Part shown: piece by piece, positions 4,377-20,507 of the stretch
Layout of the letters: every line of letters starts with the position of its first letter
Numbering within the stretch: the first letter of the stretch is position 1
From: a virus
Direction: 5' to 3' (one strand)
DNA length: 64,000 nt
IMG/VR virus record: IMGVR_UViG_3300048587_000983
Translations under genes and position numbers: made by a program
The notes under the pieces: generated by a model
Databases searched by the model: none
What the model saw: the letters and a program-made list of their open reading frames with translations, nothing else
Told to the model about the DNA's origin: nothing

Positions 4377-4818
4377 CGTTTTTTCAAGCCCTTTCGACGC
4401 ACTTTAAGAGACAAAGCTCTTTGATTACAGACACTTGTGCCAGAGCCGCCTCCGACCTTGTCACCAAACGCTTTTTTGCGGAGACACTTTCGGTGACGCT
4501 TTTCCGGACATTTTTTGTAGTCATTTCAATGGGTTTGAAATTTGTCACCGCTGGCACCAGTGAAACCCGAAAAGTAGAAAGCCTATACGCGAAAAACATC
4601 GTTATCAGAGAACTTACCCACGGGAGGGGAGGGGGTGGAGGCTCACACGATTTAAAATTCTCGCACGCGATAGTTACCCAAAAATGCCGGTGACAGCGGT
4701 GACAATGGTGACAACGACTCGGAGAGAGATATATATATTTAATTTTATTGGATTTTAATTTCGCAAAACGCCCGGATTTTGTCACCGCACTTGTCACCGC
4801 TCAGCTCCTCCTGGTGAC
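4335..4818. repeat. iteron-like GTCACC/GGTGAC array around an AT-rich core (candidate replication origin or pac site)
   Basis: 12 copies of the hexamer, mostly as TTGTCACC(G), in 484 bp and in both orientations; 31/33 A+T run at 4729-4761. Confidence 0.85.
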
Positions 4819-4857
4819 ACAGAGGGCAAACCGCCCCCTTATGCCGCAGTAATGGTG

Positions 4858-5727
4858 TCAATCTGTCTTGGATTTGGCTTTTTCCGCCACTTCCCGGAGC
4901 GTCTCCGAGTCGGGGGTCTCAAAGGTGGTCTCGACGAAGTCGAATTCGAGCTGCAGCGATTGGCTGAAGTCCGACTGATCGGCCGAGCGATATTTTTCGT
5001 ACTTGTCCGCGATCGCCAGCACCTGGCTAATCCACTCCCGCGCCTCTTTGGCAGATCCGGCGCCCCCGTCCTCAAGGTGGATGCGGGCCTTTTGGTAGGA
5101 TCGCGTTAAAAGCCCCTGGAGCATCGACGAGACCGAGACCTTGGCCGGAAGGTCGAGCTCCGACTTCAGGATGTCCAGCGGCTCGGTAAGGGCCAGGAAA
5201 TAGATTTTTTGCTCCTGGTCAGACACCCGCTTGAGATACCGGCGCCAGTCGGTCCTCGTCAGCCGCCGGGGGTCAAAGAAGACCCGCCGATAGAGGTCGA
5301 TGTGGACCTCCCGCAAAGGAGTGGCGAATTTGGCCTGGATCGCCTGGATGATATCGTGCGATTTGACGCCCTTCATGACGAGCGCGTTGATGGTCATGCG
5401 GAGCTTGGGGTCGTCGTGGATGTCGGTTGTCAGCTTCAACCGCATCCTGAACTCAGGTGTCACAAAAGGTTTTTCGCCCTGCCACAGTTCGAGGATATCA
5501 AGAACGCGCATCCAGTGAAGAAAATCCGCCCCGCCCTGGCTGCCGTTGGCGAGCTGACTTTGAACGCCAAGCGGAAGAGTCGAACGCACAAACTCGCACT
5601 GAAGATCGATCTCGCCCTGGGTTACGGGAGGCAGCATGAGAAGGGCAAGGTGCTCGTTGACCTCCTCTTCGACCACCATGTCCTTTGTGACGAGAAACCT
5701 CAGGTATAGTTCAAAAGGTGATGCCAT
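4858..5727 (-). CDS. hypothetical protein (289 aa), all-helical; weak small-terminase candidate
   Basis: Long ORF directly upstream of the iteron array and terL; function inferred only from position. Confidence 0.75.
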   Translation of the reverse strand: MASPFELYLRFLVTKDMVVEEEVNEHLALLMLPPVTQGEIDLQCEFVRSTLPLGVQSQLANGSQGGADFLHWMRVLDILELWQGEKPFVTPEFRMRLKLTTDIHDDPKLRMTINALVMKGVKSHDIIQAIQAKFATPLREVHIDLYRRVFFDPRRLTRTDWRRYLKRVSDQEQKIYFLALTEPLDILKSELDLPAKVSVSSMLQGLLTRSYQKARIHLEDGGAGSAKEAREWISQVLAIADKYEKYRSADQSDFSQSLQLEFDFVETTFETPDSETLREVAEKAKSKTD

Positions 5728-5736
5728 GGCCGCCCG

Positions 5737-6060
5737 CTAGGTGTGCGCTTTGCGGAATAGCTGTTCGAGCAGAGTTGCGCCGTCTCTCCCCCCAGCCAGA
5801 CGCTCGACCTCGCGCCCGTTTTTCAAAAGCACGATCGTCGGAAACGTCGTCACATGATGTTTCTGCGGCCTGAGAGGGTCTCGCTTCACCTCGACAAGGC
5901 GAACCTTTACGCTCGGATATTTACGGGAAAGGCGTCGAACATTGCCGCGGGCCGTCTCGCTCTCGCTCTCGCCGCTATCCCAAAAAAGCATTATGACGTG
6001 CTTTTTGAACTCGACCGGAGCCGCGGTTTTCCGCTCGAAGCCTTTCCAAAAGTAGCGCAT
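5737..6060 (-). CDS. thioredoxin-fold protein lacking CxxC
   Basis: IMLFWDSGESES at the active-site position and FPTIVLLKNGREVERLAG cis-Pro motif. ATG at 6060 has a GAGAGGGAAG RBS. N-terminus MRYFWKGFERKTA. Confidence 0.75.
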   Translation of the reverse strand: MRYFWKGFERKTAAPVEFKKHVIMLFWDSGESESETARGNVRRLSRKYPSVKVRLVEVKRDPLRPQKHHVTTFPTIVLLKNGREVERLAGGRDGATLLEQLFRKAHT

Positions 6061-6068
6061 CTTCCCTC

Positions 6069-8126
6069 TCAACCCGGCGCAATTTCCTGGGCCGACCTAA
6101 GCTTTTCAAGACCGTCGACCACCTCGATCAGCCTGTGCATCGACGTGCTGGCCGCCTCCTCGGGGATCTCTTTGAGCCCGATGCGGCTGGCGAGCAAACA
6201 GCTTGCAAGGCAGGAAATTGCAGCTTTCAGTTGTGGAATCTTTCCAATGAACTTAGCAATATTGTCAGGATTTACAAAGTTTAAAGCTAAAAGAGCGTCA
6301 ACCGTCTGCGCGTTGTCGATGTAAGAGGCCTCTTTCAAGAGGTCCCGGCGCAGAAGCGCGGCCACCTTTTCAGCCTTGTCGCGCAAGGGTTTTTTCGCAG
6401 CCAGCTTCTCCGAAGCAAGAGGCGGCGACGCAAGACCGTAGACCTCTGCGCGGCCGCGAACCTTTGCCTCCTTTATAACGCTGGCAATTTTCTCCCGACC
6501 GCAGCCGAGCGAGGCCAGAAGAAAACCTGCCTTTGCCTCGGAAAGAAGCGACTGGTCCCAGCCGATGGCCTGGGCATATTTCTGTGCGCCCTTGATCGAA
6601 AACTGTCCGTAGCCGGTCGATATCACATGAAGAGGAAGACCTTTTGGATTCTCTTCGGCTTCCTTGATCGCGTAGGATTCGAGCGTATCCGACACCGGGC
6701 CAAAGCTCTGCATGGGGACCCACTTCATGTTTCTCGGAAGCGTATGGTAGCCGTTCATCTCGGGCGTGATGCGGTGAAGCTCCATGGAGCCGTTGGTCCG
6801 GAGTTTGATCGGGCGGCCCATAAGATCGGCGCAAACCATTCGGTAGCCATAGGGCTCGGCCTCGATGACCCGGATCGTGACCGGGATTGTGGCCAGAGCG
6901 TGCGAAGCGTCAGGCTGATAGACGAACGTTCCCGTCTGCCCGACCTTTGGCGTTTCGTCGGGCATCCGAAAGTTGGTGTTCTTCACACGAACACCGGCGA
7001 TGCGCGGCTGGATGGTCGACATCGTTTTGCCGACAAAGATTTTGAGGTCAACCGGCTTCATATCAAAGTCGATGACTTTTGGAATAACCCAGCCCTCAAC
7101 AGTCACACCGGTTTTTGTTTTAACCCTGAAGGAGTCGAAGGTGGTCGCCTCCTCGACTATGGTTTGATCCTCCTGAGCCAGAATCACGTTGTCCTTGCCG
7201 CTCGGAAGGAGAAGAAACTTCTCTCCGTTCTGATCGACCTCATTCATCGTGTCTTCGACGTGATCGGAAATTTTTGAGACGAGCGAGTAGCAGTCATCGC
7301 GCGAGACAGGCCCCACAAGGCTTGGCGAGAAGACCTCGTCGCTATTTGAAAGGATCGAATACTTATCCGGACTCTCGCGGCGCAGCATGACGATGCTGTT
7401 TGGAATGAGCTTATCAGCACCCTGGCGGAACTCGTTCATGTTCACGCCCTGAAGATTGGCGATCTTTTTGATAAGCTTTGCGTGACCATGCTTGTGAAAA
7501 CCCGTCAGGTACTCGGGTTTTTTATTGAAAAAATCGAGGATTTTATCCCCATCCCCGACAGTCGGCGCGATCTCATCGATGAGAGGGTAGGAGGCGGTCT
7601 TCATGCCCTCCGGGATTTTCGAGACGATCGAAAGGACCTCGCCAATCGGATCCTCTTTTGCCCGCTCGGAGGCATAGGCGTAGCGGCCAAGCGAGGGCGG
7701 GTAGATTGCATTCCAGAGGTTCGCATCCTCGAAGCGCCCGAGGCCACCGTAGGTCGGAAACTCTTCGATCTTTTGAAAAGCCCCGGTTGTCATGAAGATT
7801 TCCTGGAACATCTGCGGGGTGAGAGGTAAAAGCTTTTGTTTGGCGATCATGACATCAAGGGGATAGAGCATGAAGTCTTTGACAATGATCGGAACGACGG
7901 CTGCCTTGTCGGTCGTGTTGATGATGATGGCGCCGGTCGCAGTTCCGTTCTCTTCGTCTTTTTTCTGAAACTTGACCATGACGCTCATTTCGCTCGCCAT
8001 GGGAACGCGCTCTTTAAACTTTTGGATAATTTCCTCGGGCCACTGCTCGAGATCGTTGCCGAGATGGGTGAGGCTTACATCCTGCACATCGGGCGCGTCG
8101 ATAAAAAGGTTCGCGGGCATGGTCAT
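6069..8126 (-). CDS. large hypothetical virion-associated protein (~685 aa)
   Basis: Long ORF in the structural operon; ATG at 8126 with GGAGA SD; several K-x-A motifs (KTAS, KKIA, KEAS, EKLA). Confidence 0.78.
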   Translation of the reverse strand: MTMPANLFIDAPDVQDVSLTHLGNDLEQWPEEIIQKFKERVPMASEMSVMVKFQKKDEENGTATGAIIINTTDKAAVVPIIVKDFMLYPLDVMIAKQKLLPLTPQMFQEIFMTTGAFQKIEEFPTYGGLGRFEDANLWNAIYPPSLGRYAYASERAKEDPIGEVLSIVSKIPEGMKTASYPLIDEIAPTVGDGDKILDFFNKKPEYLTGFHKHGHAKLIKKIANLQGVNMNEFRQGADKLIPNSIVMLRRESPDKYSILSNSDEVFSPSLVGPVSRDDCYSLVSKISDHVEDTMNEVDQNGEKFLLLPSGKDNVILAQEDQTIVEEATTFDSFRVKTKTGVTVEGWVIPKVIDFDMKPVDLKIFVGKTMSTIQPRIAGVRVKNTNFRMPDETPKVGQTGTFVYQPDASHALATIPVTIRVIEAEPYGYRMVCADLMGRPIKLRTNGSMELHRITPEMNGYHTLPRNMKWVPMQSFGPVSDTLESYAIKEAEENPKGLPLHVISTGYGQFSIKGAQKYAQAIGWDQSLLSEAKAGFLLASLGCGREKIASVIKEAKVRGRAEVYGLASPPLASEKLAAKKPLRDKAEKVAALLRRDLLKEASYIDNAQTVDALLALNFVNPDNIAKFIGKIPQLKAAISCLASCLLASRIGLKEIPEEAASTSMHRLIEVVDGLEKLRSAQEIAPG

Positions 8127-8157
8127 AGCTGTCTCCAATTTAAGGAAATCGTTTTTA

Positions 8158-8844
8158 TCATACTAGCTTACCGCCTGGCTGGCTAGGGATTCCGGCCACA
8201 GCGCCGCCTGGAGCCCCGGTCGTGACGAGAGGACTGCTGCTTGCAATCGTCGTCGTGAGCCAGACGCCCTCAAAGGTCATTTCAATGGTTTTGCCGATCG
8301 CTTTCACAAGAGGCTTTGACCGCGCCTGCGGGTTTTCAAGGTCCCACATGGGTGGCGTCAGCTGCTTTATCCAATCGTCGGCTATCCCGGCGATCGGCCC
8401 TCCGGCGCCAGCCGCCTTCAGCTGGGTCGGAAGGTTTTGGGCACTTACAGGGCCGGGGTTGATCGGCGTCGCCCCGCTCGTTCCGAGGTAGTTGAGTGAG
8501 CTGAATTTATAGGTCGTCGGCCAGCGGGTGAATTTTTCCGCGAGCACCGTGAGGAGCGCCTGGGTGAACATCACCTGCTCAGGCGAATCCTTTCCGAAAC
8601 TAGGTGCGGTGGCAACGAAGGGAGCCGACGTCATTACACCGCCAACCCCCGTACCGGCCCACGCTCCCACCCCTGCGCCCGTGATGATAAGGCTGTCGAA
8701 CAGGATTGAGTCCTGCCAGCTCTTCCAGGCTTTCTCCACAGCACCAAAAAGGCTTTCGATGTAGGAGACGCCCTCGGGCCCGAGAGGCATTCCGTAGAGT
8801 GCGATGGCCTGCTGGGCCATGGTCGATCCTGATGGCGCCGGCAT
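8158..8844 (-). CDS. hypothetical structural protein (228 aa)
   Basis: Coupled to the spike gene (overlap at 8844); rich in Gly, Ala and Pro. Confidence 0.72.
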   Translation of the reverse strand: MPAPSGSTMAQQAIALYGMPLGPEGVSYIESLFGAVEKAWKSWQDSILFDSLIITGAGVGAWAGTGVGGVMTSAPFVATAPSFGKDSPEQVMFTQALLTVLAEKFTRWPTTYKFSSLNYLGTSGATPINPGPVSAQNLPTQLKAAGAGGPIAGIADDWIKQLTPPMWDLENPQARSKPLVKAIGKTIEMTFEGVWLTTTIASSSPLVTTGAPGGAVAGIPSQPGGKLV

Positions 8845-10139
8845 TATTTCGATACCTTGACTGTGGTGGAAAACGGGACGAGCGGTGACCCTGTGAACGC
8901 GTTGATGGTTGACGGGTAGGTCAGCACGTTTTCAGTCGCGCCGGTACCTCCATCAAGCTCGATGGTGCCAAGTGCCTTTAGCTTGACGGGAGCTTTTGCC
9001 TCAAGGTTTACAGGCCCCAGCGACTGCACGTCGATCCCCGCCTTGGCGTCGATCTTCACCTTCTGAAGGGCAGTGAAGCTCATCTCGCCAGCATTGGAAA
9101 TCTTAACGGTGCCACCCGGCGCCGAGATCTCAAAATCCCCGGTGGCCAACGCATTGACCTTCACCAGTGGATTTGAGACCTCGATATCCCCGCTCTCCGT
9201 CAGCGACAGTTTGGATGTCGGATTCTTGACCTCCAAAGCCCCAGTCGCACTCAGATTGATTGTAATCAGACTATTTACGGCTACTTTAGCCGCACCTGTG
9301 GGAGAAATATCAAGCTCAAAATTTGGGATGGGACCGGACTTGAAGTTGTAGCTGCCGTCGGGGGAAATTTTTGTTCGTATCCCAATCGGTGTGCCGACGG
9401 GGGAGGGTGGGGATATTTGAAGCTCGTACACGCCGAGGTTTGAGATCGTTTCGGTGAAGCTCGGAAGTTGAACTCCCAGAACGCCAGGCACAGCAGGCCC
9501 TACCTGCCTCTTCCAGACGGTGGTGAGGTCAACCCCGCCGCGATCCTCAGTCATGATGAAGGTTCTAAGGAGGTCCCGTCGATACTCGGCCTTATGCACA
9601 GTGAGCTGGGTGATGGGATCTGATCCCCAGTCGATAGTCCCGCCGTCAGTCCTCAGTTGGTAGCGCCGGCAAAGATCGAAAATTGCCGAGCCTTTCGGGA
9701 TCATGGTCCGTCTTAATGTGTCGCTGCTTACGATCTCAATCGCCCCGTTCGATTTCACCGTAATTTTGTTGCCGGCAACGGTGGAGATGACCTTGTCACC
9801 CTCGATAAGCTTTGCTGGTTCATCGCCTGTGACCGTCGCAGCGTTTCGGGAGAGAGGCTTAAAAAAGCCAAAAATAAAAGGTTCGCCATCGACGTAAAAA
9901 ACAAGCCCTATCGAATTTTTGCGAGGTATTGAGGTGGACTCATCGCCTTCCGGATTACTATCTAGGTTGACCCACTGGCATCGAGGGATGTAATTATCAT
10001 TAAGACTACCCTTACCCAGAAATGTGACAACCGTGCAGTAGCGCTCCTTCGCAAAGACTTCGGTAATTCGTCCGAAGGCAAAACCGAAGGCCTGCTCCTC
10101 GCGGGTGGGATGCTCGCGCTCGTATATTGAAGCGTCCAT
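8844..10139 (-). CDS. baseplate central spike (gp5/gpV-like: OB-fold plus beta-helix repeats)
   Basis: N-terminal GRITEV...CTVV...IPRKNSIGLVFYVDGEPFIFGF OB-fold pattern; C-terminal short beta repeats (VKIDAKAGIDVQSLGPVNLEAKAPVKLKA). Confidence 0.7.
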   Translation of the reverse strand: MDASIYEREHPTREEQAFGFAFGRITEVFAKERYCTVVTFLGKGSLNDNYIPRCQWVNLDSNPEGDESTSIPRKNSIGLVFYVDGEPFIFGFFKPLSRNAATVTGDEPAKLIEGDKVISTVAGNKITVKSNGAIEIVSSDTLRRTMIPKGSAIFDLCRRYQLRTDGGTIDWGSDPITQLTVHKAEYRRDLLRTFIMTEDRGGVDLTTVWKRQVGPAVPGVLGVQLPSFTETISNLGVYELQISPPSPVGTPIGIRTKISPDGSYNFKSGPIPNFELDISPTGAAKVAVNSLITINLSATGALEVKNPTSKLSLTESGDIEVSNPLVKVNALATGDFEISAPGGTVKISNAGEMSFTALQKVKIDAKAGIDVQSLGPVNLEAKAPVKLKALGTIELDGGTGATENVLTYPSTINAFTGSPLVPFSTTVKVSK

Positions 10140-10213
10140 TCCGGCATTTCTCCGTGCATTCTCATGGGGTTTCTGGTCAGTCCCGAGTATATAGCCTTAG
10201 GAGCCATTTGCCG

Positions 10214-10768
10214 ATGTCATTTCAAAAAACGATTTTATGCGGCGAGATCATCACCGACCCCGAGCTCAGATGGAACCAGGCGGGCGTCGCCTGCTGTGCG
10301 TTTCGCTTGAAGACGGCGGAGAGCTGGATCGGTCCGGACGGCAGCGTGCGCGAGGACGAAGAGAGGCATCGCGTGCTCGTGTGGGGAAAAGACGCAGAGC
10401 GCATCTCAAAGGATTTCAAAAAAGGCCACCTCGTAGTCGTCGAAGGTCGGAACAAAACAAGGGCCTGGAAGAGCGAGAACGGGGTCACGATCGACATCAC
10501 GGAGGTGGTGGCCGTACCTAACGGCGTAAGGTTTTGCGGAGGAGCCGCCCTCGCCGAAAGTCGCCCCGCACGACCCGAGGCTTTCCCGGCTCCTCGACAG
10601 GATCCGCCTCCTGAGAGCGCCAAACAACCGTCCCCGGCAGCTCCCGAGGCTGCGGTAAAAGAAGAAAAGCCTTCCGCTCCCAAAAAGAAGACTCCAATCA
10701 AAGCCGCCGCCCCCAAGCCCGACAAGGTTCCCGTGGACCTCGCCGTCGCAGACGATTTACCCTTCTGA
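10214..10768 (+). CDS. ssb: single-stranded DNA-binding protein
   Basis: OB-fold motifs DPELRW, HRVLVWGKDAE, KKGHLVVVEGRNKTRAW; Pro/Ala linker; acidic DDLPF tail. ATG 10214 with AGGAG SD. Confidence 0.9.
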   Translation: MSFQKTILCGEIITDPELRWNQAGVACCAFRLKTAESWIGPDGSVREDEERHRVLVWGKDAERISKDFKKGHLVVVEGRNKTRAWKSENGVTIDITEVVAVPNGVRFCGGAALAESRPARPEAFPAPRQDPPPESAKQPSPAAPEAAVKEEKPSAPKKKTPIKAAAPKPDKVPVDLAVADDLPF

Positions 10769-10855
10769 TCGCCCGTAAACTTTACGGCTTGAGTTTTTCC
10801 GCAGGTCAGCCCAATATCGGGCTGGCGATGAATTAACACCGACCGAGGAATCAGT

Positions 10856-11179
10856 ATGAATTTGAGTGAGTTGACAGACCGAGTGGCCGCAGCTAGCGGA
10901 GCCAGCAAGGCTCAAACACGCGAGATAATCAAAACAACATTCGACGCCATGCAGCTTGAGGTCGCCAAGGGTGGCCGGGTTTGCATCGTCGGCTTTGGAA
11001 GTTTTTACCCCTTCGCCCGAAAAGAACGGGTGGGGCGTAACCCCCAGACGGGAGAAGAGGTAAAAATCCCGGCAGGCCCCGTGCCACGCTTTAAGCCGGG
11101 CAAGGAGTTCAAGGATACGATGGCCAAGGAGAGTCCGGCAAAAGCGCAGCGTCGCAAGGCCAACCGTAAAAAAGATTGA
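10856..11179 (+). CDS. hup: HU/IHF-family DNA-binding protein with basic C-terminal tail
   Basis: GGRVCIVGFGSF...ARKERVGRNPQTGEEVKIPAGPVPRFKPGKEFK signature. Confidence 0.93.
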   Translation: MNLSELTDRVAAASGASKAQTREIIKTTFDAMQLEVAKGGRVCIVGFGSFYPFARKERVGRNPQTGEEVKIPAGPVPRFKPGKEFKDTMAKESPAKAQRRKANRKKD

Positions 11180-11296
11180 AGGTGCACCGGAAGCTCCGGC
11201 TAATCCTTCCCTGTGAGTTTTCCGATAGAGTGCCAGTGCTCAATAGGCTAGGCTGATCTTAAGACCACCGAAGCTTTGCTGGGCAAGGAGGGCCGT

Positions 11297-11479
11297 ATGA
11301 ACGGTCTGACGACTGGCCTCCCTATTTTTCTGCGGCGCTTTCTTTGCCGCTTTCTCCCTCATTCCGACAGAAGGCTGGGCCCGGATCGAAACGAGCTGTG
11401 GGCAGACGGCGATCTGTCCCCCAGCACGGAAGTCTGCATCTGCAGGCGGTGTCTCAGAGTGAAGCGGAAACCTGCCTAG
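11297..11479 (+). CDS. small Cys/His protein (DUF1660-like, 60 aa)
   Basis: AAGGAGG SD; LCRFLPH...CICRRC pattern. Confidence 0.5.
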   Translation: MNGLTTGLPIFLRRFLCRFLPHSDRRLGPDRNELWADGDLSPSTEVCICRRCLRVKRKPA

Positions 11480-11661
11480 CCCCTTCTTTTTTCAAAGCCT
11501 CGCCAGAAAGCTTTTTTCTCTTCGTGATCTTCATGGAGACCGACCTTGGCTTCGAGCTTTTGCTCTTTCGGGCTTTCCGCAGCTTCCTGCTCCTTTGATT
11601 CCCGCCGCTCATGGCTCAGAAGGAGCGCTTTCAGATCTTTCTTCGACACATCGTCTCTCAT
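11476..11661 (-). CDS. charged 61-aa peptide ending in FWRGFEKRRG
   Basis: ATGA overlap with the helicase stop; carries the recurring motif at its C-terminus. Confidence 0.6.
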   Translation of the reverse strand: MRDDVSKKDLKALLLSHERRESKEQEAAESPKEQKLEAKVGLHEDHEEKKAFWRGFEKRRG

Positions 11662-13088
11662 GGCTTTTCGCTTCCTTTTTCACGGAGAATATTCAAAAAC
11701 TGGTCGTTCAGAGCATCCTTTTGCGCCGAGAGCATGTCGAGGTACTCATCCACACCAGAGTCCGCTTTCCTGCGTAAAACTCTCTGCAGGAAGGTTTTTG
11801 GAACGGTCGAATGGAACTTCTGAACATGGACATTCCTCTCTTCCGGCGGAAGGTGCTCATGGCTTTTAAAGCGGACGCCCCGGCCCTCAGCCTGCTCCAG
11901 CCGTGAGGTGTTCCAGTGCGGTTCCAAAAGCTGCATCAATTTTGTGCCTTTGAGGTCCAGGCCTTGAGCGCCTGCGCCAGAGATGAGGAGGGCCTTTGCT
12001 CGTCCGGCATTATAATCCTCCACCGCTTGCTTTCGTTTCGCATCAGAGAGTGTCCCGTCAAATACAGCGTGTGGAACACCAAGATTGGCAAGATGTCGCG
12101 CATATTCCTTCACTCCGGAATCGAGGTAGTTTGAGTAGACGACCGCCTTGAAGTTAGGGTCTTTTTGCATACGTTTTTGGAACTCGTCGATCGCCCGCTG
12201 AATTTTTGGAGAAGTCTCCGTTCCCCCAAACCCTCTCGTGCTATTTGATATTTGCCGCGGTCCGGAAAGGAAGGAATTGAGCGACTTGCTCTCCTGTTTG
12301 TTTGGCGGCAAGCCTCGACGAATCTTATAACGAAGCCCAGGACCTGCCTTGTCGAGGACGAAGTCGTAATATTTCATCTGCTCGGCATTCATCGGGACCT
12401 GGATCGTCTCGCGGCTCACAGCGGGAAAGTTCTCCCGCGCCGGCGCGTGATAGTCCACATAGCCCTTCACGAGATCAGCGAAGCGCTCGGGGTTTTTGAT
12501 TTTGTACTCGACCCCTGGTTTTGCCCCATGAAAGATTCGGGCCAGGAGTCCGGGGCTTTTCATGACCTCTGCTATGAAGGCCTTGTCGAAGGCCTTGGGG
12601 TCGGACGGTATTTTCGTATCGCCACGCACCATGGCCATAAGAGGGCCGATCTCGTGCGGGTAGTTGCGGATAGGAGTGCCTGTGAGAAGAATCCGCTTGT
12701 CGTAATCGCGCGCCTTTTGAATCATCTCCTGAGTCCGCTTGCTGTCGGTGCGACCGAGCATGTGGGCCTCATCGACCACAAGAGCGTGGCCCGTAGGTGG
12801 CGTCTTCACGGCCTTTTCGTAGCTCATGATGTTCGGCTTGTGGCCAGTCGTATGCTTTTGTACCTCTTTCGCATAGTTCTGACGAAGAGCCGCTGGTACA
12901 ACGACATCGGTTTCGTCACCTTGCGTCGCGGCCAGGGAGGTGAGCGTCTTGCCGCTTCCAAGGCCGTGATAGACAAGAACGCCCGGCTTTTTACCGAGCC
13001 TTTGCTGAACGCGGATCTGCTGCGGCTCCAGCTTGGTTGTGGTTTTTAGTTTGGCTCTCTTCTCAAAACCCAGCCAGAAGCTGTGCAT
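11658..13088 (-). CDS. SF2 (SNF2-related) ATPase/helicase resembling poxvirus D6/D11 (VETF small subunit/NPH-I) (476 aa)
   Basis: Motifs YHGLGSGKT, DEAH, LTGTP, GAGAQGLDLK, LLEPHWN..RLEQAEGRGVRFKSHEHLPPEERNV. True start ATG 13088 with GGAGGAG SD; N-terminus MHSFWLGFEKRA. Confidence 0.9.
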   Translation of the reverse strand: MHSFWLGFEKRAKLKTTTKLEPQQIRVQQRLGKKPGVLVYHGLGSGKTLTSLAATQGDETDVVVPAALRQNYAKEVQKHTTGHKPNIMSYEKAVKTPPTGHALVVDEAHMLGRTDSKRTQEMIQKARDYDKRILLTGTPIRNYPHEIGPLMAMVRGDTKIPSDPKAFDKAFIAEVMKSPGLLARIFHGAKPGVEYKIKNPERFADLVKGYVDYHAPARENFPAVSRETIQVPMNAEQMKYYDFVLDKAGPGLRYKIRRGLPPNKQESKSLNSFLSGPRQISNSTRGFGGTETSPKIQRAIDEFQKRMQKDPNFKAVVYSNYLDSGVKEYARHLANLGVPHAVFDGTLSDAKRKQAVEDYNAGRAKALLISGAGAQGLDLKGTKLMQLLEPHWNTSRLEQAEGRGVRFKSHEHLPPEERNVHVQKFHSTVPKTFLQRVLRRKADSGVDEYLDMLSAQKDALNDQFLNILREKGSEKP

Positions 13089-13110
13089 TACCGTTTCTCC
13101 TCCGGAAGAT

Positions 13111-13491
13111 TCAAATGGTGCCAAGCATAAGCTCTTCGTCTTCGCCCGTTCGCGCAAGATAGCGGAGGTATTCCTTCTGTTCTTTTGGAGGCATGGCGAG
13201 AACTCTTTTGGCTTCCTCGATACCCCGCTTCTGGGCGATCGCCCTAAGGACCCCGGCCAGCCCGCCGACAGCCAAGCCGGCCGCACCTCCGGCAAAAGCC
13301 CCAGGGACAGCGCGGTCCGCGGCACCGAAAAGAGCCCCCGTAACCCCGCCTAAACCAGCTCCGACGAGACCTCCTTTTAGTTTCGACAGCGGTTTTTTCT
13401 GCGCTGATTCTTCGAGCTCTTTTTTAAGAACACGAGCCTCGTAATCGTAGTCGTAAGCCCGCTTTTCAAAGCCGTTCCAAAATGCATGCAT
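13111..13491 (-). CDS. glycine-zipper membrane protein with N-terminal FWNGFEKRA motif
   Basis: GGLVGAGLGGVTGALFG / GAFAGGAAGLAVGGLAG; start overlaps the RNAP stop (TGATG). Confidence 0.8.
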   Translation of the reverse strand: MHAFWNGFEKRAYDYDYEARVLKKELEESAQKKPLSKLKGGLVGAGLGGVTGALFGAADRAVPGAFAGGAAGLAVGGLAGVLRAIAQKRGIEEAKRVLAMPPKEQKEYLRYLARTGEDEELMLGTI

Positions 13492-16400
13492 CAGTATTTC
13501 CCTTCCTTGCCTTTGCCAAACTCCGCTCCGTAGGCGAACGCCGGGATCGGATGGTAGTCACTCGTATTCGTGCTCCAGCCTTGCGAGGCCCCGGTCGTCA
13601 GCGCGCGCTGCAGCTGCTGATAGCCGAGAGCAGCCATCCAGTCTTTTCTCAAAAGAGGCAGATTGCGCACGGATTTGAGAAGTGGCGCATGAACTATGGG
13701 ATCCTTTTGAATCTTAACCGTTTTCACCGTGGCCGAAAGCCGGGAGATGTCCTCAGGGGTCATCTCGTGCCCCGCGCGAAGGCCTCCGGCAGACTCGGCG
13801 AGCTTAAAGCCGAGGCTCTCTTCGATCGGCACGTCCTGGGCGAGGTTTTTGTTGTGGTGCTGGGCCACCGTATAGGGGATCACATCCCCCGGAAGATAAC
13901 CCGTCCCTTTGGGAGCGTTCTGCACCTGGGTCGTATTGCCCATGGACCGCACAACGGTCTCAAAAATCTTTTTGTGGAGATTGACCCCCTGGCCCTCGTA
14001 GCTCTTTTTGAGCTCGGTGGCGAGGTAGTCCTGGGCGGCGTCCATCCCGAGGTGTTTCACGAGATCCTGGGGCTTGATAGGCCCCTCAGAAAGCGGCTCA
14101 CCACGCCTGACCTGCGAGCCCACCTGCACGCGAAGAGGTTTGCCCTGAGGAACATGCGCCTTTGTGTCTTTACCGATCGTCACGACAAAGCCGCCACCAA
14201 GACCCTTTTCGATCTTTGTCACCCGGCCATCGACCGGGGCAAGTGGCGCAGCGCCTGCGACCTGCTTTGGCATCTGAAGAAGCTGATCGATCCGGGCGTA
14301 GCCCTGAACGTCGGCCCCTGTGCCGGCAGCCCCGCCCGTGTGGAAAGTTCGCATCACCATCTGCACCAGCGGCTCACTTATCGTCTGGCCTGCCTTGGCA
14401 CCGATGTTCTCGCCTATCTCAGGCATGTGACCGTGCTCGTCGAGGCCATAGCACTTCGCGCATGTGCCTTTTGGGGCAAGACAGCGAAGTGGCGAGCGGA
14501 CCTTGATGCTTGAAAGACCGCGTTTTTTCAGCTCGTTGACCACCTTCGTGTCAACCAGGGTATTGTGAGAAAAGCCGCCCTGATCGCCCGCGAGGAAGCG
14601 GTCGTAGACATCGGTGTCCTCGATCTTGTGAGCGACCCCTTCTTTCGTTCCGCAGTCCTCTTTTGATATGACGTTTCCGATTGTGGTCGCCATGATGTCT
14701 TTTGAAAAGGCCCCGGGCAGCGAGGTCTGGATCGCCCTATCCATCATGCCTCGACGAGCCCCGTACATGCTGATCCAGTAATCGCCGACGTCCAGGCCTT
14801 CGGCGTAGGATTTTTTTATTGGGGTCGGGATAATGCGGCCCTTTTCGTCGCTCATAAAAAGAGGGGTCGCCACGATCTGCCTGAGCTGGCTTGAGTTGCC
14901 GCGCGCCCCTGAGCGGACCATATCGAAAAGCGGATTGTCTTTCCCTTCGAGCTTTTTCTCGATGACCTTGTCGATAAGGTTCGCCGCGCGCTTGTTGACG
15001 TCCATAAGCCGGGCCTGGTCGGTGGTCGCCGCAGCGGCTCTGGATGCACTCTCGACCACCCTGTCACGGATCGTCCCAAACTGCGCAATGTCTTCAAGAC
15101 CAAGTGTAAAGCCTCTTTCGTATGCGTGCTTTTCACCTTCGGCCTTGAGGTTGGCGACGATACTCGCATAGTCCTGCGGCGGCAGCTCTTTTGAAAGCTT
15201 CATGACAAGAGCCCCGGTCGCCTTTTTATCAAGGACACCCGTGACCTTATATTTCTCAGGCAGAAAGCGATTGAGGCTCTGGCGGCCAGCCGGCGTTTTT
15301 GAAAGGTAGAAAAGCCCAATCTGCGCCTCCTGGGAGGGCTGAATCATAAGCTTGCCCGACCCCGGCTGGAAGAGATTGCGCGAGGGCTTCAGCCGCTCGG
15401 CCTCTTTGTTGGCCTCATCTCCAATCGGCACGTGAACCGTCATCGTATCGCCGTCGAAGTCAGCATTGAATCCTTGAACGATAAGAGGCGGGATCTTGAT
15501 AGCCTTGCCGTCGGTGATCTTGGGCTTAAATGCCATGATCGAGAACTTATGCAGCGAAGGGGCTCTATTCAAAAGAACATGCCGCTGCTTCATGACATTA
15601 TCGAGTGCTCGGCGCGCAGTCTGCGTTTTCTTCTTGATGGCCTCTTTCGCGTCGAGGGGGTTCAGTCCGAAGTTGCGAAGCTCGCGCACGACGAAAGGTT
15701 CAAAGAGCGACCACGCCATAGGCTCGGGCATCGCCATTTCATCGACGCCAAGCGAGGGCTCAGGGATGATCGTCCCGCGGCCGACATAGTCCTGCTGCTT
15801 TGAGAGGAGCTTGCTGATAAAGAAGCCCTCTTTTGGCTGACCACCCGTGCCGCCCTTGATCTCGGCTATAAGGCCGTCCTTCGGCTTTCCTTTCATGGTC
15901 GTATTCGTAAGACCGACGACACCCTTCACGTGCTTATAAAGATCGGCGCGGACATCAGCCTTCGCATCCTCCGAAAGCAGGTCCATGACGGGAAGGTTCA
16001 TCACCGTGTTGACGACGCCCACGTTCTGATAAAGATCGTTCACGGGGGATGTCGCCACCTCGCCCGTTGGCAGTGGGTAGATGGGTCTATAGATGGGAGG
16101 CAGCACCGGAAGCTTTCTTCGGATGTAGGCCTCTTCAGGACGAAGACCTGTCTGCTTCAGCGCCGATAGGTAGCGAAGCTTTTTGTTCATGTCGTCAAGC
16201 TTCGAGCCAGTCGCATTCTGCGCTTTTCGCGTAAGGTTCTTAAGCTCCGCGTCGACGTCCATTTTCTTTAAAAGTGTTTCGATTCCCGCGCCGCCGGTGA
16301 CGCCCGTATGCTCGGTCGTGAGGCTGCCGTCAGGTTTAACGAAAAGCTTTCCTGCAACGATCTCGTCAAATTTCCCCGAGAGCCCGAGAAGTTTTCTCGC

Positions 16401-19400
16401 TGCCTCTTCAAACGCCGGGTTTACGACGGGCTCCTTCAGCTCAAGATGGCCCCACTTGGTTCCCTTGAGGCCGCCGAAGATCTTGCCATCGAAAAACCCG
16501 CCCTTGACGGGCTGAAAGTCCTTGGCGTGATAGAAGTGCGCCTTCTGCACGCCGCCGCTGCTCATCTTTTCGATCTGGGCGTCCGTGAGAGGGGCAAGCG
16601 TGAGTTTGGTCCCCTCCTTTTGGACATCGATGCCGGCCCCCTTCAGATAGGCCATGAATTTGTCGAATACAAACGGGGCCTTGGGCGGCGGCAGCTGCTG
16701 GCCGCTACGAAGTGCCTTCCAGTATTCGTCGTTGACGTTCGCTTTCAGCGAGCTCATCTCACGAAGGTTTGCCCGCGCCCCGTGGGAGAGGAGCGAATAC
16801 ATCGTCAGAAGGTCGAGCGATTTTGAGCCTTCCTCGCCGCCTGTTTTCAGGGGCTGAAGGTTACTGTCATACGGCATCCCAGGTCCGCCCTGGCGAACCG
16901 AGAAGTTGCCGGCCGATTGCTTGAAGAGCTTCAGGATGTATGGGTTTCCGACGTGCACCTGACCGAGGCTTTTGCCAGTCGAAGGATCAAAAAGTTCTTC
17001 CTTGTCAGACACCCCGTTTTCTTTAAGAAACTTTCGAGTTGTGCCAAGATAGTTTTGTCCTGTGAAGTTTTGAACCTTGTATGGAGCCCCAGCTTTGAGA
17101 GCCGCCTTGCCTGCAGCAGACTCGTAGATCTGACCAATGTTGATTCGTCCAATAACTCCGTGAGGATTGAGGAGGATATCGACAGCTCCGCCTCCAGCAT
17201 CCTTCGGCATCTGTCCATCGGGGAGGATTTTTGTGATGATGCCCTTGTTCCCCATGCGTCCCGAGAGCTTGTCGCCGATCTTTGCGCGCTCCTCGGTTCG
17301 TATGAAGACCGTGATCGTTCCCCCAACTTTAACCACTTCAGTGACAACGCCTTCGTCCTCGCCCGTCCAGCGAACGCTGGCATCCCGCGGTCTATCCGCG
17401 AGGGTTTTGGAGATAACCGCGATCTGAGCATCCCGATTCTTCCTCTCCATTGCTGCGATGATAATATCACCCGAGCGGACGCGCGAACCTTTTTTGATAA
17501 CGCCATCAGAACCAATTTTTGAGGCGTTGTCCGGACTCAGGAGCGCCGGGTAGTTCAGCCGGAAAAGCCCCTTGTCGAGAGTTGACTGGGGTGTTACCGC
17601 GTAGGATTTTTTGTGTATGTGCTCGCTCGTGAGCTTCTCAGCCGCAGACTCCGAGATTACAATCCCGTCCTCGAAGTTGTAGCCCTTGTAGGGAATATAT
17701 GCGGCGCGCAGGTTTGTGCCGAGCGCCAGCGTCCCGCCTTTTGTAAAATTGCTCTCCGCGAGGAGCTGATCCTTTTTCACCCGCTCCCCGACCTTGACCA
17801 CGGGCGTATGATGGAGAAAGCTTTTCCGGTTGAGCGAGAAGTTATTATAGAGGCTAATCTTCCGATCACCTCCAGCCGTCGTAAGAACGATCTCGTCCTC
17901 GCCAACCTTTTTTACAGTGCCTTCTTCAGGGGCACGAATCGCCACCTGGCGCCCGACGACCTCCTCCATGGATTGGCCGGTTGAAGTTCCGACTTGAACA
18001 AGCGGCGCCTCCCGGTGCTTAAGGCCGATGGCCTGCTCCAGCATTTTCGAGGCCATCATCGCCCGGTTCCCCTGGTTTGAGGGAAGAAAGGGGACAAGGT
18101 TTGTCGATGGAGAGAAAAGGGCCTCGGCGGTTGGCGTGAAGTAATCCACCTTGGAGACGGGCACCATAACGATCTGCCCGCGGTAGAGGGCCTTGACCGT
18201 ATCGCCCTTTTGCCCCGGAAAAGCCACGTACTTCTCCCAGCTTTCAATTGGCGTGAGAGCCTCAGGCTGCCCCGTCTTTGCATTTTTCAGGATGGCCTTA
18301 AGATTCTTGCCGTCCTTGATCACGCCCATTGGAAGGTGGAGGTTGACGCCTATTCGTTCTGATTCAGGCGTGTGGACGGGGTCTATGAAACCGTAATGCG
18401 AAGGGTGGACCTGCCGCATCTCGTCTTTGATTGCATGGCGCGATGTGATCCCGCCCGAACCCATGAAAGTCGCCTTGTGTCCGCCGGATAGCATCTCAAG
18501 GGGATTTGTCTGCTCGGGCGTTGCCGCCTTGTCGTCCTGCGTGAAAAACCCCTCGACCGTAGACGAGAACGCGGCCGGGTTTACGAGCTGGCTTATCTTC
18601 ACACGGCGCGGGTTATCGACCTGTCTTCGGATCTTGCGCTCCAGCTCTGTGCGGTTCTTTTCAAGACGCTCGGCTATGAAATCCTCCACGCTATGGATTT
18701 CTTTAAACGCGAGGGAGTCCCTGTCCACGGGTTCTTTTTTTCCAAGCTGCACATCAAGAAGGTTTTTGGACGCGGCCAAGAGCATTGGCCCATCGACCCT
18801 CTCAAACGAAGTCCCAAGCACCAGTTTCGTCGTATCCGCCGGCAGAGACGTTTTTCCAAAATACTCTCTGAGACCATCTTTTTTAACCCCGAACGCGGTT
18901 TCAGCACGCTGCACCGCTTTCGGATCAGTATTTTTGTTGGCCGCCTCTAGTTTGGAACCCCAGGTTTGAGCCATGAGTACAGGAGAGACGCCGAGATGAG
19001 TAAGAATAGGATAAAGAGGAATATTCGTCTGACCCCCGCCGATTTTCTGGATGGTGAAGACACCACTCCTCTCATCAAACGCGAGGTCAAAGTTCCTTCC
19101 TCGTGCCAGGTTAACTTGGGTTTTGAGTTGTCCATTTTGCTTCCTTATCGTGTAGACGCCAGAGCGCAGGCGAAGCTGGTTGTTCACCTGATACTCGTTG
19201 CCGGCGACGATATACGACGAGCGCGCCGTTGCCGTTGGAAGAAGAAAGAGCCTCACTTTCTCCGCGCGGTCAATCACTTTTCCTGTCGAATTTTCGACGA
19301 GTGACAGCGAGGCGTACACAGGAACCCCCCATGTCCCCTCACGAAGCTTTGTCTTTGCCTGGCCGGAAAAGTCGTCCGGAGCGGCTTTGTCGTCGGTCCA

Positions 19401-19517
19401 GACGTTATCAAGCTTCATCGTGCGGATTCGCCCAGTCACCGGAAAAATCGATCGGACGGCATTTACCGCAGCACTCTTCACCGATTCAGTTTGCTGTTTG
19501 GCGTCAAAATTTCGCAT
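13491..19517 (-). CDS. rpoBC: phage DNA-directed RNA polymerase, fused beta-beta' (2008 aa)
   Basis: beta motifs YNFEDG, GDKLSGRMGNKG, LLNPHGVIGRINIGQ; beta' motifs LLNRAPSLH, NADFDGD (15447-15467), GARG, bridge helix GARRG, CGT/C/CAKC zinc site, trigger loop MRTFHTGG. Confidence 0.97.
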   Translation of the reverse strand: MRNFDAKQQTESVKSAAVNAVRSIFPVTGRIRTMKLDNVWTDDKAAPDDFSGQAKTKLREGTWGVPVYASLSLVENSTGKVIDRAEKVRLFLLPTATARSSYIVAGNEYQVNNQLRLRSGVYTIRKQNGQLKTQVNLARGRNFDLAFDERSGVFTIQKIGGGQTNIPLYPILTHLGVSPVLMAQTWGSKLEAANKNTDPKAVQRAETAFGVKKDGLREYFGKTSLPADTTKLVLGTSFERVDGPMLLAASKNLLDVQLGKKEPVDRDSLAFKEIHSVEDFIAERLEKNRTELERKIRRQVDNPRRVKISQLVNPAAFSSTVEGFFTQDDKAATPEQTNPLEMLSGGHKATFMGSGGITSRHAIKDEMRQVHPSHYGFIDPVHTPESERIGVNLHLPMGVIKDGKNLKAILKNAKTGQPEALTPIESWEKYVAFPGQKGDTVKALYRGQIVMVPVSKVDYFTPTAEALFSPSTNLVPFLPSNQGNRAMMASKMLEQAIGLKHREAPLVQVGTSTGQSMEEVVGRQVAIRAPEEGTVKKVGEDEIVLTTAGGDRKISLYNNFSLNRKSFLHHTPVVKVGERVKKDQLLAESNFTKGGTLALGTNLRAAYIPYKGYNFEDGIVISESAAEKLTSEHIHKKSYAVTPQSTLDKGLFRLNYPALLSPDNASKIGSDGVIKKGSRVRSGDIIIAAMERKNRDAQIAVISKTLADRPRDASVRWTGEDEGVVTEVVKVGGTITVFIRTEERAKIGDKLSGRMGNKGIITKILPDGQMPKDAGGGAVDILLNPHGVIGRINIGQIYESAAGKAALKAGAPYKVQNFTGQNYLGTTRKFLKENGVSDKEELFDPSTGKSLGQVHVGNPYILKLFKQSAGNFSVRQGGPGMPYDSNLQPLKTGGEEGSKSLDLLTMYSLLSHGARANLREMSSLKANVNDEYWKALRSGQQLPPPKAPFVFDKFMAYLKGAGIDVQKEGTKLTLAPLTDAQIEKMSSGGVQKAHFYHAKDFQPVKGGFFDGKIFGGLKGTKWGHLELKEPVVNPAFEEAARKLLGLSGKFDEIVAGKLFVKPDGSLTTEHTGVTGGAGIETLLKKMDVDAELKNLTRKAQNATGSKLDDMNKKLRYLSALKQTGLRPEEAYIRRKLPVLPPIYRPIYPLPTGEVATSPVNDLYQNVGVVNTVMNLPVMDLLSEDAKADVRADLYKHVKGVVGLTNTTMKGKPKDGLIAEIKGGTGGQPKEGFFISKLLSKQQDYVGRGTIIPEPSLGVDEMAMPEPMAWSLFEPFVVRELRNFGLNPLDAKEAIKKKTQTARRALDNVMKQRHVLLNRAPSLHKFSIMAFKPKITDGKAIKIPPLIVQGFNADFDGDTMTVHVPIGDEANKEAERLKPSRNLFQPGSGKLMIQPSQEAQIGLFYLSKTPAGRQSLNRFLPEKYKVTGVLDKKATGALVMKLSKELPPQDYASIVANLKAEGEKHAYERGFTLGLEDIAQFGTIRDRVVESASRAAAATTDQARLMDVNKRAANLIDKVIEKKLEGKDNPLFDMVRSGARGNSSQLRQIVATPLFMSDEKGRIIPTPIKKSYAEGLDVGDYWISMYGARRGMMDRAIQTSLPGAFSKDIMATTIGNVISKEDCGTKEGVAHKIEDTDVYDRFLAGDQGGFSHNTLVDTKVVNELKKRGLSSIKVRSPLRCLAPKGTCAKCYGLDEHGHMPEIGENIGAKAGQTISEPLVQMVMRTFHTGGAAGTGADVQGYARIDQLLQMPKQVAGAAPLAPVDGRVTKIEKGLGGGFVVTIGKDTKAHVPQGKPLRVQVGSQVRRGEPLSEGPIKPQDLVKHLGMDAAQDYLATELKKSYEGQGVNLHKKIFETVVRSMGNTTQVQNAPKGTGYLPGDVIPYTVAQHHNKNLAQDVPIEESLGFKLAESAGGLRAGHEMTPEDISRLSATVKTVKIQKDPIVHAPLLKSVRNLPLLRKDWMAALGYQQLQRALTTGASQGWSTNTSDYHPIPAFAYGAEFGKGKEGKY

Positions 19518-19545
19518 AGAAGTTGATATAAGCCTCCTGGCGGAG

Positions 19546-19564
19546 CGTTTAACTTTTCACTTTG
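19546..19564 (-). promoter_or_regulatory. candidate phage promoter element CAAAGTG-AAAAGTTAAACG
   Basis: The 12-mer AAAAGTTAAACG recurs exactly upstream of 37748; CAAAGTG-N8-AAACG recurs upstream of 36537. Confidence 0.35.
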
Positions 19565-19668
19565 AAAGGGGTTCTATAGACAAACTAGAGTAGTTTTCGT
19601 GAAAAATCACCTTTTCTTTCCGATGAGTTGTTTCTGAATGAACTGGCTTTACACAAGGAAGGCAAGCC

Positions 19669-20199
19669 ATGTCGATTAACGCTGAATTTGAAGCTGAAGT
19701 TTCGTCTGACCACGATAGTCCTTTTTCAAAAGCGCCCGGTGGAAACCCTTTCGGGGGTTTTGCGGGAGAGACGGGTGGAAACCCATTCCGCGATTCCCCC
19801 GGGGCGCAGCAGCGGAAATCGCCAAGCGGCGGATCGAAGCCGAACTTTGTGGTACGCGCGTGGCGAGTTGTGAAGGACTTCTTCGTCGGTATCGGAAGGG
19901 CTGTATTTTCACGACAGTTCTGGGTTGATTTTATAGCAACAGCGCTCCGTGATGCGCTTGCCGCTCTTGGGTATTCGATCGGCATGCGAATGGTCAAGAA
20001 AGCTGCGGCGACCGGTGACATCATCTTCCGTGACAAGAGCGGAATGGTGTCAGAGACTGAAGCAGCTGCGCAGGGTACGGCGTATGCGAGCCAGCAGTCC
20101 TGGCCGCCAAGAGCAAGGCCATCAGGTGGTTCCGTCCAGGACAATCTCATGGCTTACCCCGCTGACAGGCCGTACGCACAACGGTCGTTTGTAAACTGA
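19669..20199 (+). CDS. hypothetical protein (176 aa)
   Basis: AAGGAAGG SD; divergent from RNAP; central amphipathic helices. Confidence 0.7.
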   Translation: MSINAEFEAEVSSDHDSPFSKAPGGNPFGGFAGETGGNPFRDSPGAQQRKSPSGGSKPNFVVRAWRVVKDFFVGIGRAVFSRQFWVDFIATALRDALAALGYSIGMRMVKKAAATGDIIFRDKSGMVSETEAAAQGTAYASQQSWPPRARPSGGSVQDNLMAYPADRPYAQRSFVN

Positions 20200-20216
20200 G
20201 AAGGTTTGCGCATCGG

Positions 20217-20253
20217 TGCGCCCTGGGATCCCAGGGCGCATTCTCATTTTTTT
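20217..20253. terminator. intrinsic terminator (perfect 24-bp palindrome) between convergent genes
   Basis: TGCGCCCTGGGATCCCAGGGCGCA at 20217-20240, T-tract at 20247-20253. Confidence 0.65.
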
Positions 20254-20264
20254 AGCTATGCCCA

Positions 20265-20507
20265 TCAGTAGTTCCGCGGGCCGCCGCCCGCTTGAACAGG
20301 CTTCACCTCAGGCGAATCGGTAAGCTTTCCGAGTCCGTAAAGACCGCCTCCAGCAGCGATGGTGCCAAGCGCCGCCTTCTGCTTGAGTTTAAAAAGAGGA
20401 CTTTTGCTCGTTCGCTTGTACCAGTGAAGAGGCATCATAAGGCCCTCAGCCATGCCCGCAGCGAGCTTTTCCTCAAACGCTTTCAGAGCAATGTTCTTTC
20501 CTGCCAT
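20265..20507 (-). CDS. small hypothetical protein with AFEEKLA motif variant and a Gly-rich hydrophobic segment
   Basis: MAGKNIALKAFEEKLAAG; ALGTIAAGGGLYGLG. Confidence 0.62.
   Translation of the reverse strand: MAGKNIALKAFEEKLAAGMAEGLMMPLHWYKRTSKSPLFKLKQKAALGTIAAGGGLYGLGKLTDSPEVKPVQAGGGPRNY

Follow-up and report, generated by a model that had tools for sequence, protein, structure and literature searches.

A 476-residue ATPase encoded in a 64,000-nucleotide stretch of viral DNA (IMG/VR record IMGVR_UViG_3300048587_000983; the whole stretch is hereafter called the window) very probably belongs to the D6/D11-like helicases, which are regarded as a hallmark of giant viruses and yeast cytoplasmic plasmids and act on a virus-encoded polymerase carried in the particle. 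The window ATPase represents a large and diverse family of phage proteins that appears to fall into one clade with the D6/D11-like helicases of nucleocytoplasmic large DNA viruses (NCLDVs), and the hosts of this family are phages with a deeply branching multisubunit RNA polymerase of their own. Besides the polymerase, the ATPase would thus give this phage lineage a second link to the transcription apparatus of giant viruses. Its closest relatives outside the phage group seem to be the transcription helicases of giant viruses and poxviruses, and we found no published link of the phage ATPases to the D6/D11 group in a literature coverage that was incomplete. The gene and its sites are the following.

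11658-13088, minus strand: coding sequence of the SNF2-type, probable D6/D11-like ATPase, 476 amino acids (translation, Pfam, AlphaFold2 [AF2] model, clade with NCLDV helicases).
13097-13103, minus strand: Shine-Dalgarno sequence GGAGGAG, 8 nt upstream of the ATPase ATG (read from the sequence).
13053-13088, minus strand: N-terminal tag MHSFWLGFEKRA, residues 1-12 of the ATPase (sequence; disordered in the model).
12945-12965, minus strand: Walker A motif GLGSGKT, residues 42-48 (translation; G42, G44, G46, and K47 invariant in the family profile A1).
12762-12773, minus strand: Walker B motif (motif II) DEAH, residues 106-109 (translation; D106 and E107 invariant).
11829-11924, minus strand: C-lobe signature EPHWN...Q..GR..R.KSH..LP..ER.V, residues 389-420 (BLASTP against a Megavirus helicase; profile alignment to NPH-I).

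The ATPase gene is real and has a strong ribosome-binding site; its open reading frame (ORF) runs on the minus strand from an ATG at 13088 to a stop at 11658, and a longer frame that begins with GTG and extends to 13325 is unlikely to be the one used. Both peptides quoted in the initial annotation, VYHGLGSGKTLTS and LLEPHWNTSRLEQAEGRGVRFKSHEHLPPEERNVHV, are present in the translation. Pfam recognized SNF2-rel_dom (PF00176; 63.1 bits, 3e-17, cut-off 24.9) and Helicase_C (PF00271; 52.6 bits, 6e-14, cut-off 23.5). The catalytic motifs GLGSGKT, VVDEAHM, and LLTGTPIRN are all present, G137, P139, and N142 of motif III are invariant, and the three motifs are intact across 36 aligned relatives. The AF2 model, built on the alignment of relatives, reached a predicted local distance difference test score (pLDDT) of 91.9 and a predicted template modeling score (pTM) of 0.87, with disorder confined to residues 1-10 (pLDDT <50). 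It has a two-lobe SNF2 fold with helical protrusions (AF2 and VIA-align). The protein has 12 residues before the core and ends about 55 residues past motif VI. Pfam at E 0.01 or better gave helicase-core families only, with no NPH-I-type C-terminal domain, and neither Pfam nor the model disclosed an extra DNA-binding domain or a methyltransferase or other effector domain, the 476 residues being a bare motor. Judged from its sequence, the ATPase is a minimal SNF2-fold, ATP-driven double-stranded-DNA translocase.

Profile scores and trees agree that the ATPase is more similar to the VETF-s/NPH-I family than to RapA, as the initial annotation had suggested. We scored a profile of the phage ATPase family (A1) against NCLDV, phage, cellular, and PDB proteins. 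The short helicases of Mimiviridae (441-553 amino acids) scored 278-311 bits and other NCLDV helicases 117-192 bits, compared with 52-105 bits for generic phage SNF2 proteins, 62-92 bits for bacterial and archaeal SNF2 proteins, 79 bits or less for eukaryotic and archaeal SNF2 proteins in PDB, and 23.4 bits for Escherichia coli RapA, the last over positions 100-411 only. The matches to NCLDV proteins extended through the C-terminal extension, whereas those to generic phage SNF2 proteins ended near profile position 407. Among PDB proteins, NPH-I scored 68 bits, and VETF-s was not among the 60 matches listed. Besides, a tblastn search with the ATPase gave no match to RapA at 1e-4.

The protein's C-terminal portion shows the same affinity. 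In BLASTP, a Megavirus chiliensis protein annotated as a "putative ATP-dependent RNA helicase" (YP_004894706.1, 441 amino acids) aligned with the ATPase along its entire length at 29% identity (199 bits, E 3e-63), including the C-terminal block EPHWN...GR.+R+KSHE.LP..ERNV...DEYL..LS.+K; the signature reads LLEPHWNTSRLEQAEGRGVRFKSHEHLPPEERNV in the window protein and MEPHWNESKITQVIGRAIRYKSHEKLPVNERNV in its Megavirus counterpart. Like NPH-I (D11) and the NCLDV helicases, the ATPase combines an SNF2-type core with a C-lobe EPxWN...Q..GR..R..SH..P..ER.V signature followed by D.yL....K. In the ATPase and the NPH-I group, this signature replaces the DxxWNP...RxHRIGQ of chromatin remodelers, and ISWI, placed beside NPH-I in the profile alignment, has DSDWNPQ...RAHRIGQ at this position. 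The best solved relative of the Megavirus helicase was vaccinia NPH-I (2e-14), followed by CHD4 (1e-7). Three longer helicases from giant-virus metagenome-assembled genomes (MAGs) had NPH-I (5e-40, 5e-22, and 1e-16) and VETF-s (1e-13) as their sole PDB matches at E 1e-3 or better, and we therefore take them as bona fide D6/D11 proteins.

Rankings in other collections were of the same kind. In IMG/VR, the phage family came first and giant-virus contigs next. In BFVD, rank 1 was a 598-residue unnamed protein (33% identity), ranks 2 to 8 were NCLDV proteins or an unnamed entry, with ranks 2 and 3 named "Early transcription factor 70 kDa subunit," and the first generic Caudovirales SNF2 protein appeared at rank 9. 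Among 50,697 phage genomes, only two contained a close relative, with 38% identity in Salmonella phage Arash and 35% in the Pseudanabaena cyanophage PA-SR01; the next tblastn matches were generic SNF2 helicases (21-25% identity, 72 bits or less), whose genes adjoin those for RuvC-like or PD-(D/E)XK nucleases in recombination modules.

Maximum-likelihood trees were built with IQ-TREE (LG+C20+F+G4; 51-64 rows) without eukaryotic SNF2, poxvirus, or yeast-plasmid sequences, and their NCLDV rows had been retrieved by likeness to the window ATPase. The phage family, a group of MAG sequences, and the NCLDV helicases formed a joint clade with a Shimodaira-Hasegawa-like approximate likelihood ratio test (SH-aLRT) value of 98-99, and generic phage SNF2 proteins, bacterial and archaeal SNF2 proteins, and RapA all fell outside it. 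The profile and phylogeny comparison proposed in the initial annotation thus groups the ATPase with the NCLDV D6/D11 helicases and not with RapA or the generic phage SNF2 proteins. A joint phage-plus-NCLDV profile matched NPH-I end to end with 190 bits, the best remodeler with 137, and VETF-s with 87, scores that are partly circular because the profile includes NCLDV rows. The direct match between the ATPase and vaccinia NPH-I was weak (26 bits, C-lobe only).

Judging from these trees, the phage ATPase family is either sister or ancestral to the giant-virus D6/D11-like helicases. In the best trees rooted on RapA, the NCLDV clade was nested within phage diversity, and both a basal phage clade (L096, L134, L165, and L189) and the main family include ATPase genes adjacent to polymerase genes. 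In approximately unbiased (AU) tests, a tree that held the 20 core phage rows together did no worse (p-AU 0.63), and neither the tree with all phage rows as one clade (lnL -14.6, p 0.22) nor that with the MAG group included (lnL -21.3, p 0.14) was rejected, so that a sister relationship stands beside the nesting. It is possible, although we think it unlikely, that the giant-virus, poxvirus, and yeast-plasmid D6/D11 helicases, including NPH-I, VETF-s, and K2ORF4, descend from a phage ATPase that was already paired and packaged with a virion multisubunit RNA polymerase. If this were true, the early-transcription module of a polymerase plus an SNF2 motor in the capsid would be older than the eukaryotic giant viruses and would have arisen in tailed phages.

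The MAG rows nearest the NCLDV clade were considered as phages, and this assignment was dropped, as one of them (L104; CAZKTU010000001.1, 229,619 bp, binned as Oscillochloris) adjoins Rpb1- and Rpb2-type genes. At 1397-19917 of this contig, a 687-residue D6/D11-like helicase lies between genes for a 1457-residue Rpb1-type protein (Pfam Rpb1_1-5) and a 1202-residue Rpb2-type protein (Rpb2_1-7). Since these flanking genes match the Rpb2_4/5 and Rpb1_3 domains, which the window polymerase does not match in Pfam, the contig probably comes from a large DNA virus of eukaryotes and was wrongly placed in a bacterial MAG.

We then consider the relation of the ATPase to the phage polymerase. As had been noted initially, the ATPase gene lies two genes downstream of the RNA polymerase gene, and the start of the ORF between them overlaps the polymerase stop.

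13491-19517, minus strand: single-chain beta-beta' RNA polymerase, 2008 amino acids (Pfam Rpb2_3/6 and Rpb1_1/2/4/5).
13111-13491, minus strand: 126-residue glycine-zipper ORF with the tag, separating the polymerase and ATPase genes (weak Gly-zipper_YMGG match).
11476-11661, minus strand: 61-residue ORF with the tag at its C terminus (FWRGFEKRRG, then the stop); its start overlaps the ATPase stop.

This neighborhood recurs. The ATPase gene was found within 10 kb in 11 of 79 polymerase-centered loci, on the same strand in all 11. It lies either downstream of the polymerase, with gaps of 341-5454 nt, or, in three loci (L188, L190, and L191), between the polymerase pieces, where it follows the beta-beta'N gene by 120 nt and precedes the beta'-C piece. 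In Arash, it overlaps the end of the beta'-C gene. The polymerase-adjacent ATPases are 27-68% identical to the window protein, and two of their lineages are only 27-30% identical to each other. The NADFDGD motif of the polymerase is kept in 22 relatives. The polymerase itself is a single chain in the window and is split in Arash (L001, 821-5398 and 10169-11989) and some metagenomic relatives after about residue 1410-1422, with beta and the beta' N terminus carrying NADFDGD in one protein and the beta' C terminus in the other. This gp206/gp216 split of Arash matches that of the yeast plasmid pGKL2, in which K2ORF6 comprises beta and part of beta' and K2ORF7 the beta' C terminus (PMC6211774). 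In the closest relatives (L138, 7546-16104; L173, 9740-18298; L142, 10001-17464), whose polymerase is about 70% identical, the polymerase match covers 7.4-8.6 kb versus 6.0 kb, which suggests inserted inteins, introns, or homing endonucleases.

Delivery of the ATPase with the virion, as proposed in the initial annotation, is borne out for Arash alone, in which the 38%-identical homologue Gp217 is abundant in virions together with the RNA polymerase. In the mass spectrometry of Arash virions, Gp217, annotated as a "DNA helicase," was detected with 100% coverage, 38 unique peptides, and 1148 spectra, and the spectra numbered 3516 and 1210 for the polymerase proteins Gp206 and Gp216, 1333 for the major capsid protein, and 877 for the portal protein (PMC10585845). 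By our own arithmetic on these data, the spectra per residue come to about 2.4 for Gp217, to 2.3 and 2.0 for the polymerase subunits, and to 1.5 for the portal protein (PMC10585845). DNA ligase, primase, and other helicases in the same table, which are probable contaminants, have 2 unique peptides each (PMC10585845). By analogy with Arash, the ATPase is fairly likely to be packaged in the virion of the window phage as well. Arash, which packages its homologue at polymerase-like abundance, offers a tractable system for the role of such a motor with a virion polymerase.

Several observations weigh against a virion-packaged ATPase serving the phage polymerase, and we give each with the alternative on which it bears. 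The Arash virion list comprises 116 proteins and includes ribonucleotide reductases (PMC10585845); the latter show that non-structural proteins were present in the preparation as well, and the authors themselves allow for carry-over of highly expressed enzymes (PMC10585845). A list that contains clearly non-structural enzymes would accommodate an ordinary SNF2 helicase of replication, recombination, or repair that was detected in virions owing to its high expression alone, and such helicases are common in phage replication modules beside RuvC-like or PD-(D/E)XK nuclease genes. However, the ATPase gene lies between the portal and terminase genes, outside any replication module, the tree sets it apart from the replication-module helicases (SH-aLRT 98-99), and Gp217 yielded 38 unique peptides where DNA ligase, primase, and the remaining helicases had 2 each, so that we regard this explanation as quite improbable.

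The association with the polymerase also proved less general than it had seemed. All eight ATPase-bearing IMG/VR contigs with which the question was addressed contain the polymerase; as the latter seems to be general among these phages, shared descent alone may account for this. In a reverse test, we used 10 complete polymerase-bearing genomes picked for having no adjacent ATPase (CheckV 100%, with 88% for one; several with terminal repeats). The ATPase was found anywhere in only one of the 10, this match being the positive control, and two of five checked polymerase-bearing genomes without an adjacent ATPase had no Helicase_C domain. We therefore dropped genome-wide co-occurrence as support and used adjacency in its place; with one genome in 10 carrying the ATPase, the polymerase works without it in most lineages. 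Besides, in the complete 137-kb genome of PA-SR01, the ATPase gene stands among those for structural proteins, and nothing in it matched the window polymerase, Rpb2_6, or Rpb1_2. Thus, of the proposed co-occurrence with the fused polymerase, what stands is the position directly downstream in divergent lineages. From the reverse test and PA-SR01, we take the ATPase to be accessory, as it does not accompany the polymerase universally.

PA-SR01, with its ATPase gene in the structural region and no detectable phage polymerase, would be explained by a DNA translocase delivered with the virion whose action, in genome entry, in stripping host proteins, or in protection from restriction, does not involve the polymerase. 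The Dar-type proteins of phage P1 are injected and protect from restriction. Such a function would also suit the loci, the majority, in which the ATPase is not beside the polymerase, the abundance of the homologue in virions, and the best PHROG of the ATPase, phrog_62 "DNA helicase" (2e-36), in which the matched part is the helicase section of a 1881-position multidomain profile. We nevertheless consider it doubtful. The ATPase is a bare motor with no methyltransferase or effector domain, its nearest characterized relatives are transcription factors, and its same-strand placement just downstream of the polymerase recurs in lineages 27-68% identical to the window ATPase.

The predicted fold, in turn, gives NPH-I no edge over the chromatin remodelers when the model is compared with solved structures. 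Foldseek retrieved NPH-I/VETF-s and remodelers/CSB alike (E 1e-19 to 1e-16), and VIA-align gave Z scores of 23-29, with 28.8 for INO80 (389 aligned residues, root mean square deviation 3.0), 27.9 for SNF2h, 25 for CSB, and 23.7 for NPH-I; CSB/Rad26 and Mot1 were among the top matches of these searches. Placing the ATPase by fold was therefore rejected, since the solved structures confirm an SNF2 fold without separating NPH-I/VETF-s from remodelers or CSB. The presence of CSB/Rad26 and Mot1, which are motors acting on polymerases, brings in a delivered or early factor that would act on the host RNA polymerase or host DNA, displacing or recycling the host enzyme in the manner of RapA or Mfd, and PA-SR01, which must rely on host transcription, retains the ATPase. 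This is improbable in our view: RapA was the most distant SNF2 protein tested (23 bits, and no tblastn match at 1e-4), its type of N-terminal polymerase-binding domain is missing from the ATPase, and the gene order ties the ATPase to the phage polymerase and not to early or takeover genes.

We tentatively favor, at close to but short of an even chance, a virion-packaged accessory translocase for the phage polymerase that resembles NPH-I or RapA more than it does an initiation factor of the obligatory kind. The ATPase would be made late, together with the head genes, packaged in the capsid alongside the fused beta-beta' RNA polymerase that the phage itself encodes, and brought into the cell with the DNA. 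On the incoming genome, it may then work beside this polymerase as an accessory motor, in the way of NPH-I and RapA, by pushing, releasing, or recycling polymerase that has stalled or is terminating; a VETF-like role, obligatory for promoter recognition, is less likely. That the ATPase acts with the phage polymerase at all, perhaps through physical contact, has in our estimate an even chance. The initial annotation had named promoter opening or transcript release as the step affected, by analogy with related systems; provided that the ATPase acts with the polymerase, a role in release, recycling, or elongation seems likelier than one in initiation. An NPH-I- or RapA-type role fits better than a VETF-type role because NPH-I scores higher, because no DNA-recognition module or partner is apparent, and because most polymerase-bearing relatives are without the ATPase.

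The comparison with known systems can be drawn further. Like NPH-I, the ATPase accompanies a virus-encoded multisubunit polymerase and has a homologue, Arash Gp217, in virions. Unlike NPH-I, it comes from a tailed bacteriophage and has neither the NPH-I C-terminal domain nor a Rap94-type adaptor, and its 476 residues compare with roughly 630-1100 in most NCLDV members. The C-terminal domain of NPH-I contacts Rap94. This adaptor is also missing from yeast plasmids and most NCLDVs (PMC6211774). VETF-s (D6) and K2ORF4 of pGKL2 belong to the D6/D11 group and function with a beta/beta'-type polymerase that is reduced or fused, and K2ORF4p co-immunoprecipitates with the plasmid polymerase (PMC6211774). 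In contrast to VETF-s, the ATPase has no evident counterpart of the VETF large subunit, and VETF-s scores lower than NPH-I (87 versus 190 bits with the joint profile); unlike an essential initiation factor, the ATPase is absent from most polymerase-bearing relatives. RapA (HepA) is likewise an SNF2-fold ATPase and binds and recycles a multisubunit polymerase, which makes it a functional analogy only, as RapA has 968 residues with N-terminal polymerase-binding domains and lies outside the phage-NCLDV clade.

A precedent for the idea exists in phiKZ-like jumbo phages, in which a Rad25-related Swi2/Snf2-type helicase tracks the multisubunit polymerase genes in phyletic pattern and neighborhood, and for which a RapA-like role has been proposed (Iyer et al. 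2021, PMC7824862). The phiKZ-type helicase appears to be of a different lineage and goes with a split-subunit polymerase, and no phiKZ-like phage was among the 12 tblastn matches to the ATPase at 1e-5 in the 50,697 phage records. In the passages of Iyer et al. that concern this helicase, no NCLDV D6/D11 link is proposed (PMC7824862). The paper defining the polymerase-encoding phages to which the window belongs makes no mention of helicase, SNF2, or virions (PMC7481178).

The window is a 64-kb piece, of which about 44 ORFs were surveyed with Pfam and/or PHROGs, and nearly all of its genes are on the minus strand. A portal gene (20701-22731) lies upstream of the ATPase and a large terminase gene (1359-4376) downstream, which puts the polymerase-ATPase block within the module for head formation and packaging. 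In the stretch 10800-20300, promoter- and terminator-like sites showed no excess over shuffled sequences. The absence of a sigma factor noted in the initial annotation was confirmed insofar as no sigma-factor domain was found in the ORFs scanned. A sigma-free system does not follow from one 64-kb window, because Arash virions contain Gp10, which is annotated as a sigma factor (PMC10585845), and this protein counts against the original proposal. No gene resembling the large subunit of VETF (VETF-l) was recognized among the same ORFs. The large terminase has 1005 residues, with the terminase match limited to residues 521-989; its N-terminal half matched phrog_9666, a PHROG of unknown function, and gave a weak primase-family match.

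The N-terminal tag of the ATPase, MHSFWLGFEKRA, had been pointed out initially and is indeed present. The motif [M]xxFWxGFEKRA had six N-terminal matches in the window, compared with 1.45 matches of any kind in shuffled sequence. The tag occurs at the N terminus of at least five unrelated window proteins, including the ATPase and the 126-residue ORF, and at the C terminus of the 61-residue ORF (sites at 13053-13088, 13456-13491, about 57900-57930, about 58650-58680, about 6020-6050, and 11476-11510). It is kept in ATPase relatives above about 50% identity and is absent below this level and from the NCLDV homologues, and on this pattern the tag is lineage specific. A packaging signal was considered, and the tag was rejected as necessary for packaging because Arash Gp217 is packaged without it. 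A DnaJ-domain protein in the structural region (56843-57652) has an internal copy of the tag.

Beyond the isolated phages, the metagenomic family of the ATPase comprises 1367 clusters (90% identity) at E <=1e-5, and the contigs that carry them are in many cases 150-190 kb long. A scan of 185,579 prokaryote genomes found relatives on MAG contigs only; for the full-length close ones, the contig size was mostly about 100-230 kb. As no isolate genome contained a relative, there is no sign of a cellular or prophage reservoir. Three family members of about 750 residues (P0050, P0064, and P0070) and two with open frames of 1181 and 1531 residues (L090 and L091) may have long N-terminal extensions or fusions. 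The longest contig of the cluster holding the window ATPase (P0002) is 180,819 bp, which is the size of the Arash record and may be a coincidence or a bookkeeping quirk.

Elsewhere in the window, the region 38000-44000 has a G+C content of up to 0.63 and a strongly negative GC skew, and two ORFs of about 840 residues each (38453-40954 and 40966-43509) had no Pfam or PHROG match. Auxiliary genes also lie within the structural region, namely, that for a thioredoxin-fold protein (5737-6072) and a pair encoding a ferrochelatase-like protein and a 2OG-Fe(II) oxygenase (36664-37748).

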